A stretch of 14,867 nucleotides of DNA from a virus (lineage: Duplodnaviria > Heunggongvirae > Uroviricota > Caudoviricetes): IMG/VR virus record IMGVR_UViG_2617270955_000010. One strand, written 5' to 3'. Positions 13,115-13,817 of the stretch are shown piece by piece. The translations under genes and the position numbers were made by a program. The number at the start of each line of letters is the position of its first letter. The first letter of the stretch is position 1. The notes beneath the pieces are model-generated. The model did no database searches, was not told the DNA's origin, and saw nothing but the letters and a program-made list of their open reading frames with translations.

Positions 13115-13387
13115 TCACAACCCCATCCACAAAAGCCATGCATCACGCTGTTCAACCGGTCGGTTATAAAACGCCTCACGTACAGCGCGATTAAACTCAG
13201 GAATGAAAACCCATTTTTCACCGGCACGAGCCTTCGGTTTGCAAGGATCACGCAATTCAATAATTGGTAATTTATTTGCCTTCACCATTTCACTGACAGC
13301 TGTCTTTGGCTTCCCTAATAAATCAGCAAATTTATCCACATGAACCGCATCAAGCGGATACTGAATCACATAATTTTCAGCGTCCAT
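13115..13387 (-). CDS. cox: Cox-like excisionase / early-promoter repressor
   Basis: 90 aa from the second ATG (MDAENYVIQYPLDAVHVDKFADLLGKPKTAVSEMVKANKLPIIEL...), preceded by GAGGG. First gene of the early operon, divergent from C. Resembles P2 Cox in size and pattern (...LPVI...AGE.WV..P.....WL.W.GL). Confidence 0.8.
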   Translation of the reverse strand: MDAENYVIQYPLDAVHVDKFADLLGKPKTAVSEMVKANKLPIIELRDPCKPKARAGEKWVFIPEFNRAVREAFYNRPVEQRDAWLLWMGL

Positions 13388-13523
13388 ATATGGTACCCTC
13401 ATAGGATCCAGCCCTTTCTAAACCACTCAAAACCGTTTAGACGCTGGTTTATTCTCAAATCAATGGAACCTATATAGGTTCCAGTTTTGAGGGAATTTAG
13501 TCCCTATATAGGCACCATGTCAA
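13388..13523. promoter_or_regulatory. Lysogeny/lysis switch region (Pe/Pc promoters and operators) between cox and C
   Basis: 136-bp intergenic region between the divergent cox and C genes, containing two copies of the palindromic core CCTATATAGG with TATATA -10-like hexamers. Confidence 0.6.
13465..13482. repeat. Perfect 18-bp palindrome GGAACCTATATAGGTTCC (candidate operator), with a second copy of the 10-bp core at 13503..13512
   Basis: Read directly in the sequence; the core CCTATATAGG is self-complementary and occurs twice, 34 bp apart, just upstream of the C start. Confidence 0.7.
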
Positions 13524-13817
13524 ATGAAATTAAGCGAAAAGATTAAGGCCTTGCGTGAGGCTGAAGGGCTAAGCCAATCAAAATTCTGTGAAATCATAGA
13601 GTTACCGCTAAGCACACTTAAAAAATATGAAGGAGGAAACTTTGAACCCGGTGGCACAGCTTTGCTAAAAATCACTATGCATCCCACATTCCAAAAATAT
13701 GCTCTATGGCTTATGACAGATAAAACCGCGCCGGACGCAGGACAAATCGCACCGGCTCTCGCGCACATTGGGCCAGAGTCAACAGAGTCCAACCACTCCG
13801 CGAAAAGGATTGGCTAA
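13524..13817 (+). CDS. C: P2 C-type immunity repressor
   Basis: 97 aa. The C-terminal half ...FQKYALWLMTDKTAPDAGQIAPALAHIGPE... closely resembles P2 C (...FTKYTLWFMTNQIAPESGQIAPALAHFG...). Position immediately upstream of int. Confidence 0.85.
   Translation: MKLSEKIKALREAEGLSQSKFCEIIELPLSTLKKYEGGNFEPGGTALLKITMHPTFQKYALWLMTDKTAPDAGQIAPALAHIGPESTESNHSAKRIG

Follow-up and report, generated by a model that had tools for sequence, protein, structure and literature searches.

The C operator of phage WPhi, the nearest characterised relative of the locus considered here, consists of two 10-bp direct repeats lying 34 bp apart, centre to centre, on either side of the -10 hexamer of the early promoter Pe (PMC1904268). 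These half-sites were mapped experimentally (Liu & Haggard-Ljungquist 1999; PMC1904263; PMC1904268), and O1 has the sequence TATTGGTGAC (PMC1904263). The P2 half-sites consist of non-palindromic direct repeats of 8 bp (GTTTAGAT) located 22 bp apart, and in both phages repression is lost only when both half-sites are mutated. The P2 C dimer is symmetric and can be superposed on P22 c2 in complex with its palindromic operator, the recognition helices being similarly spaced, and the reading of non-palindromic repeats by such a dimer was left as a puzzle (PMC2995052). Here, we describe the corresponding switch region of a viral DNA of 14,867 nucleotides (IMG/VR record IMGVR_UViG_2617270955_000010), hereafter the window, in which two palindromic elements lie between the divergent cox and C genes. 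Judging from their sequence and position, these elements are, with good confidence, the O1/O2-equivalent operator pair serving the C repressor in a P2-like prophage of the L-413C type.

The two palindromic elements and their described counterparts

The preliminary description of this region, made from the letters of the window, reported an 18-bp palindrome (GGAACCTATATAGGTTCC, 13465-13482) and a second copy of its 10-bp core 34 bp away, both between cox and C. Our analysis confirmed the two copies, and the perfect palindrome in fact extends over 20 bp (TGGAACCTATATAGGTTCCA, 13464-13483). The core CCTATATAGG is found at 13469-13478 and 13503-13512, with a start-to-start distance of 34 bp. The proximal copy keeps one of the outer arms: 13503-13517 (CCTATATAGGCACCA) equals 13469-13483 at 13 out of 15 positions, the same relation between proximal and distal arms being recovered as inverted repeat I2 in the repeat scan. 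The elements and the promoter predicted around them are as follows.

13464-13483, no strand: predicted distal operator (WPhi O2 equivalent), TGGAACCTATATAGGTTCCA, at about +5 to +25 of the predicted Pe transcript
13503-13512, no strand: predicted proximal operator core (WPhi O1 equivalent), CCTATATAGG, in the spacer between the Pe -35 and -10
13499-13516: nominal 18-bp extent of the predicted proximal operator, its right arm reaching 13517 (CCTATATAGGCACCA)
13523-13518, - strand: predicted Pe -35, TTGACA, from the promoter scan, abutting the C start codon
13499-13494, - strand: predicted Pe -10, TAAATT, from the promoter scan (10/12 matches)
13487-13488, - strand: predicted Pe transcription start, transferred from the WPhi start (6 nt past its -10) through alignment A1

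Two-copy short repeats are frequently accidental and intergenic DNA is AT-rich, hence one alternative is that a fortuitous palindrome and a short repeat happen to coincide here. The distal palindrome is the longest perfect one in the window, the runners-up having 6-bp arms, and arms of 10 bp arose anywhere in only 1.5% of 2000 first-order Markov simulations of 14.9 kb each, while those observed lie within a single spacer of 121 bp, with cox (-) on one side and C (+) on the other. Likewise, the CCTATATAGG 10-mer occurs at these two places only, even with one mismatch allowed, for an expected count of 0.17, and a count of 2 was reached in 5 of 200 shuffles. Moreover, the elements occupy positions homologous to the mapped operators of WPhi and are kept in more than 400 prophages. 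Taken together, the WPhi alignment, the simulations, the 10-mer count and the co-evolution of the sites presented below effectively refute chance, to which we attach a negligible probability.

Comparison with WPhi gives the elements their most probable identity. The two copies of GTCACCAATA found in the WPhi sequence are the mapped half-sites, and in alignment A1 both elements of the window fall on the columns of these half-sites, with the -35 and -10 hexamers placed alike (the WPhi record annotates Pe at 1757-1793 and Pc at 1875-1911). The operator-like character proposed at first is thereby supported, as the positions equal those of mapped C operators. The two loci further share their gene layout, a 97-aa C, two 10-bp repeats 34 bp apart flanking the Pe -10, and a TTGACA -35 abutting the C start, and their Cox proteins are 82% identical. 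In contrast, the C proteins are only 56% identical and differ at positions that contact bases in P2 C (K34/N39 here, N34/H39 in WPhi), the repeats are unrelated in detail (CCTATATAGG versus GTCACCAATA), and the Pe spacer measures 18 bp instead of 17 bp. Finally, the WPhi repeats are non-palindromic and direct, whereas each site of the window is a dyad, perfect over 20 bp at the distal position and made of the 10-bp core and one arm at the proximal position. With such a divergent C and differing half-sites, the window does not belong to the WPhi immunity class, to which phiECO7 was assigned on the basis of a near-identical C and spacer (PMC3448106). The WPhi and L-413C-type classes are expected to be heteroimmune.

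The locus has most of the hallmarks of a P2-type switch: a small helix-turn-helix (HTH) C homologous to P2 C (E 1.9e-21), the order of the cox, C and int genes, and two short repeats two to three helical turns apart that flank the predicted Pe -10. In P2, repression calls on both half-sites, and Pe and Pc converge in a switch with Cox; the same may apply here, where Pe is well supported. The locus departs from P2 itself by the sequence, length and spacing of the half-sites and by a C that is 43% identical. One feature that is missing is the "non-palindromic direct repeats" ascribed to P2, WPhi and P2 Hy dis as well as to the seven classes (PMC2995052). That each site is palindromic, unlike the published description, had been pointed out in the preliminary description and was borne out; because every site is a dyad in its own right, the pair counts as both direct and inverted. 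Within 631-658 of P2 (NC_001895), a third copy of TGTTTAG lies 37 bp from O1 and supplies one of the arms of an inverted repeat of 8 bp (TTTAGTGC/GCACTAAA); this repeat belongs to the Pe/Pc overlap, with O2 on one side and the Pc -10 on the other.

Other repressor systems resemble the locus less closely. Like the operators of the lambdoid repressors (P22 c2, 434, lambda cI), the elements offer an 18-20 bp dyad suiting a symmetric HTH dimer. Unlike them, the locus has just two sites, which are separated by three helical turns and bracket the -10, with no tripartite OR shared with a Cro-like protein. The lytic repressor Cox uses separate sites, and C has no RecA-cleavable C-terminal domain. The 186-type switch relies on a CI of about 190 aa with two domains, inverted-repeat operators plus distal sites, and a cII gene. 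In the window, C has 97 aa and a single HTH domain, and its best structural relative is P2 C, not 186 CI.

The genes bordering the spacer were confirmed as cox and C by gene calls and by domain and structure matches.

13524-13817, + strand: C, immunity repressor gene, 97 aa, HTH
13115-13387, - strand: cox, 90 aa, Pfam Phage_Cox (first ATG of the open reading frame at 13402)

C is identical to WP_000777029.1, carries a single HTH domain (Pfam HTH_3) and matches the P2 C structures 2XCJ and 2L49 along its full length (residues 3-97). Cox matches Pfam Phage_Cox (E 1.2e-23) and the P2 Cox structure 4LHF. The gene following C, int, encodes an integrase domain, and the order cox <- -> C-int is annotated likewise in L-413C (orf78-cox <- -> C-int). 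The start of cox most likely lies at 13387, because a GAGGG Shine-Dalgarno sequence stands upstream, the start is shared with WPhi Cox, and the resulting 273-nt gene is annotated in nine phage records; from the first ATG at 13402, Cox would have 95 aa, and this 288-nt version is annotated in L-413C and 569R9. Another 10-bp perfect palindrome, CCATATATGG, covers the probable cox start codon (13384-13393) and shows no position-wise match to the operator core. On the other side of the spacer, the C start codon of P2 is the ATG within ATGTCAA, and C of the window begins 7 nt later, at 13524. The ATG at the P2 position (13517-13519, in ATGTCAA) is out of frame here and opens an open reading frame of 9 codons.

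Predicted position of Pe and candidate proteins for binding at the elements

In the promoter scan, the sole promoter-like site of the region consists of TTGACA, an 18-bp spacer and TAAATT on the - strand. This -10 aligns in A1 with the WPhi Pe -10 (TATATT), and TTGACA is given as the Pe -35 in the annotation of P2 and falls inside the Pe promoter feature of WPhi. For a broader comparison, 160 loci encoding C relatives were gathered and anchored on TGTCAA, and 50 non-redundant distal regions were aligned (alignment A3). TGTCAA stands at the Pe -35 position in 112 out of 149 related loci, and the A3 columns corresponding to 13494 and 13499 hold A in all 50 classes, that of 13498 holding T in 48 of them. 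Read on the - strand, the columns of 13494, 13498 and 13499 are T-7, A-11 and T-12 of the Pe -10, that is, the three most conserved positions of the sigma-70 -10 hexamer. By homology, the predicted Pe -10 thus sits between the two elements, with the proximal core in the -35/-10 spacer, and the distal palindrome would lie downstream of the Pe start, at about +5 to +25 if the 6-nt distance of WPhi applies.

This placement bears on the suggestion, made in the preliminary description, that the TATATA centres of the elements double as -10 hexamers of Pe and/or Pc, the repressor sitting directly on the -10. TATATA matches TATAAT at 4 of 6 positions, Pc of the L-413C-type class has no assigned position, and in a reporter the HQ103 Pc fragment showed no activity, all of which counts in favour of such a promoter. 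Nevertheless, the scan returned no promoter using either TATATA, the best -35 partners found by eye (TTTATT or TTAATT) reach 3/6, the conserved final T is missing, and most related classes have no TATA-like sequence at the homologous centres. The mapped Pe -10 of WPhi is likewise located between the half-sites, WPhi Pc adjoins cox and P2 Pc is annotated near cox. Since homology and family-wide invariance both place the -10 between the elements, with the T-12/A-11/T-7 triplet at 13499-13494, the TATATA centres were rejected as -10 boxes, a reading that we regard as improbable.

Two further proteins could in principle account for the elements. The intergenic region is AT-rich and is also where Cox, as lytic repressor and excisionase, exerts its action; the host nucleoid protein H-NS binds fragments with Pe and with Pc from the near-identical phage HQ103, and at 21 C it silences Pe (PMC10321612). 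Binding of the palindromes by Cox or by a host nucleoid protein such as H-NS, instead of C, is nevertheless highly improbable. Indeed, the comparison with WPhi indicates that the elements track C, not Cox, because Cox is 82% identical to WPhi Cox while C (56%) and the elements have diverged, to the point that no specific sequence is shared with WPhi at these positions. H-NS binding neither needs nor would conserve two exact 10-mers or a perfect 20-bp palindrome, and it would not drive the co-evolution of the sites with the recognition helix of C. A better candidate for Cox is a more conserved box nearer cox, at about 13417-13447 (inverted pairs I5 and I6). Cox and H-NS were therefore rejected as binding proteins on the strength of the Cox/C divergence and of the co-evolution data.

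The stretch 13417-13451 holds the short inverted pairs TCTAAAC/GTTTAGA and TAAACCA/TGGTTTA, as well as a box, CCGTTTAGACGCTGG, resembling ACGTTCTAGCGGCTGG, which is found at the same place in many other classes. We consider it a candidate Cox-binding or Pc region. No + strand promoter passed the scan of the switch region, and in alignment A1 the segment carrying the WPhi Pc -35 is absent from the window.

According to the mechanism that we consider most likely, Pe would fire leftwards on the - strand, with the proximal site in its spacer and the distal palindrome just past its start. The centres of the two sites are 34 bp apart, close to three helical turns, and each dyad would accommodate one two-fold symmetric C dimer. 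Bound at both predicted operator sites, C would bracket the -10 and the start and keep RNA polymerase from Pe, so that cox and the replication genes would stay silent, resulting in lysogeny and superinfection immunity. WPhi C binds an isolated half-site in vitro, and altered spacing does not abolish repression in vivo. One symmetric dimer per site is proposed because P2 C is a symmetric dimer, a single WPhi half-site suffices for binding, the orientation of the sites is free across the family (see below) and the distal site is a perfect palindrome.

Co-evolution of the sites and the extended dyad

Across the family, the two sites appear to change together. The distal inner 12-mer fits the proximal site of its own locus better than non-cognate ones (8.76 versus 6.69 of 12 positions), a cognate mean reached by none of 10,000 permutations. 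CC(T/A)TATA(A/T)GG-type cores occupy both positions in one whole subfamily, Pseudomonas loci among them. TATA-type palindromic cores pair with x-K-Y in recognition helix 3 of C and other cores mostly with K-N-Y, an association confounded by ancestry. In alignment A2, the varying helix-3 residue is the counterpart of P2 C Tyr36, which is among the poorly conserved residues positioned to contact bases (PMC2995052).

The orientation of the sites is much less constrained. When 18-mers centred on the distal dyad were compared in 49 classes, the proximal site was direct in 19, inverted in 26 and tied in 4, with clear cases of both kinds (L004, 16/18 direct versus 11 inverted; L147, 15/18 inverted versus 10 direct), and the distal 18-mer was palindromic at 7/9 pairs or better in 15 of the 49. 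Such a distribution suggests that the "direct repeat" is not a defining or conserved property of P2-type C operators.

The distal operator is also embedded in a larger symmetry, which raises the question of a function at the RNA level.

13451-13496, no strand: extended imperfect dyad centred on the predicted distal operator (inverted repeat I1), with outer arms CTCAAA (13454-13459) and TTTGAG (13486-13491)

The distal palindrome and its flanking arms could also, or instead, form an RNA stem-loop, situated close to or at the 5' end of the Pe mRNA or else within the Pc (C-int) leader, that would influence mRNA stability, processing or transcriptional interference. The predicted folding energy of the hairpin is -18.4 kcal/mol for the + strand (z -4.2) and -16.4 kcal/mol for the - strand (z -5.2). 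The homologous dyad (17 pairs, A3 columns 15-48, 50 classes) is paired at 74.3%, versus 59.6% after shuffling, and its covariation score of 0.379 compares with 0.163 for shuffled alignments, none of 500 reaching it, and with at most 0.175 for slid controls. All 8 outer pairs change on both sides, as in CCCGAAAAGGT/ACCTTTTCGGG and CCTCAAAAGGT/ACCTTTTGAGG, and these outer arms are beyond the reach of one HTH dimer. The mapped Pe start of WPhi falls exactly at the base of an 8-bp stem, and the 8-bp inverted repeat of P2 is located just downstream of O2. Wobble-compatible mismatches in the outer helix point to the + strand (34 versus 17), although this asymmetry is weak and confounded by relatedness.

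A stem-loop leaves four observations unaccounted for: the core recurs inside the Pe spacer, the two sites co-evolve, the lytic isolates described below carry paired substitutions, and the operator genetics of WPhi point to both half-sites. In addition, a hairpin at the Pe 5' end alone does not fit, because the outermost covarying pairs lie upstream of the Pe start in many classes. The promoter/terminator scan marked the palindrome as terminator-like on the - strand (13483-13464), but the U-tract following the stem (TTGATTTGAG) is weak and hence makes no convincing terminator; this tract, the implausible position about 5 nt past the predicted Pe start and a stem that is half AT speak against such a reading. 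A search of 13300-13650 against Rfam with E up to 10 returned no family, only meaningless sub-threshold matches (miRNA, GIR1 ribozyme). Overall, we hold an RNA stem-loop at this place to be rather unlikely; it is possible as an additional layer, and very unlikely as the sole function of the dyad.

Returning to C as the protein probably bound at these sites, a broader proposal can be made for its family, tentatively and with slightly more doubt than confidence. C-family repressors may not be intrinsic readers of direct repeats. Each half-site would be a complete dyad or pseudo-dyad of 18-20 bp for one symmetric C dimer, the outer contact (G at -8, C at +8) being conserved and the inner ones specific to each class. 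The orientation of the sites would be free, and P2, WPhi and P2 Hy dis would show direct repeats only by accident, their sites being asymmetric. The distal operator would possibly also lie inside a conserved, covarying stem-loop of about 34 bp acting at the RNA level in the convergent Pe/Pc overlap.

The L-413C-type class and its lytic variants

The 761-bp switch region is 98.8-99.9% identical in the Yersinia phage L-413C, "Escherichia phage P2" KC618326, P24B2, R18C, FSL SP-004 and HQ103, and the identity to L-413C, R18C and HQ103 is 99.3-99.9%. The window belongs to the L-413C type: its C shows no substitution relative to L-413C, the C gene being the same as those of L-413C and R18C without a single difference, and the spacer differs only at three L-413C-specific positions. 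At an identity of at least 99%, the switch region is present in 420 of 5426 complete E. coli genomes (7.7%), always on the chromosome. The preliminary description had suggested a distinct immunity specificity for this prophage. The specificity does appear distinct from those of P2, WPhi and P2 Hy dis, because the elements differ from their operators and C is only 56% and 43% identical to WPhi C and P2 C, identities that also put it outside the three immunity classes with mapped operators (P2 Hy dis C is reported to be 63% identical to P2 C). However, it is the property of a widespread class and not of this prophage alone.

A literature search found no paper mapping or naming the operator of the L-413C type; the work of Karlsson et al. 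(2006), who reportedly defined seven immunity classes, and that of Garcia et al. (2008), said to be the L-413C genome paper, lay outside this search. A full-text search for CCTATATAGG returned no phage paper, and a 2026 survey of P2-like viruses does not discuss repressors. The immunity class is thus already catalogued, and its operator is the part so far unmapped in the literature found.

Within the class, the elements are nearly invariant. Using a match that requires a 28-nt exact word, the 30-mer around the distal element was found exact in 415 of the 420 E. coli prophages and that around the proximal element in 407. Both elements are unchanged in 20 of the 22 loci of the class taken from genomes or metagenomes; of the other two, L089 has T13464C at the outer edge of the palindrome, and L100 is the record of R18C itself. 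The window itself carries the wild-type (prophage) version of both elements. Three phages of the class with a lytic or clear-plaque phenotype differ from it as follows.

L-413C: lytic, C intact; G13466T in the distal and G13512T in the proximal element
R18C: "virulent" (PMC6823313), C intact; G13478A in the distal and C13504A in the proximal element
HQ103: clear plaques (PMC10321612); 7-bp deletion in C, both predicted operators intact

One substitution in each element would be found by chance with a probability of about 7e-4 for R18C and 4e-3 for L-413C. Over the 50 classes, G13466 is nearly invariant and its dyad partner C13481 is invariant. Given that repression in P2 and WPhi yields only to mutation of both half-sites, L-413C and R18C look like natural vir-type double operator mutants, and their substitutions would be the cause of the lytic phenotype. 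In HQ103, C is frameshifted by the 7-bp deletion (window-equivalent 13680-13686), in agreement with the published truncation, and a full-length C of the L-413C-type class supplied from a plasmid blocks HQ103 plaque formation (PMC10321612). In the intergenic region, HQ103 otherwise differs only by C13442T, a polymorphism common among prophages; therefore, the published "mutation of promoter Pc" of HQ103 may not be a defect.

Several points weigh against the assignment of the elements as C operators or against the account of the lytic isolates. The three characterised C proteins are only 43-56% identical to C of the window, and the published model for the family is the recognition of non-palindromic direct repeats (PMC2995052), the symmetric reading being our own. 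The relatives compared are phylogenetically related, hence the co-variation statistics overstate independence. Up to 5 of the 420 prophages for the distal 30-mer, and up to 13 for the proximal one, carry changes. The link to the lytic phenotype is circumstantial and comes from a comparison of the 761-bp switch region only, and L-413C also carries A13495G in the Pe -10 and P51L in Cox.

A further variant of the Pe -10, A13494G, removes T-7 and is present in 80 of the 420 E. coli prophages. It is linked to C13442T in the two genomes and the one metagenome locus that were checked. In prophages with A13494G the early promoter may be crippled, and these lysogens may be grounded or hyper-stable.

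As a switch, the system follows the textbook and alters nothing in what is known of the logic by which P2-type phages control lysogeny. The finding is ordinary in kind and of modest interest in its detail, since it concerns the unmapped operator of an already catalogued immunity class. Nonetheless, this class resides in about one in 13 complete E. coli genomes, and it is also that of the plague-diagnostic phage L-413C, of R18C and of HQ103. The operator assignment predicts which prophages would give immunity to which phages, and it offers a testable account of why L-413C and R18C are lytic despite an intact C, namely one substitution per operator. Finally, a perfectly symmetric natural site would provide a substrate with which to approach the puzzle of P2 C, a symmetric dimer said to read "non-palindromic direct repeats".

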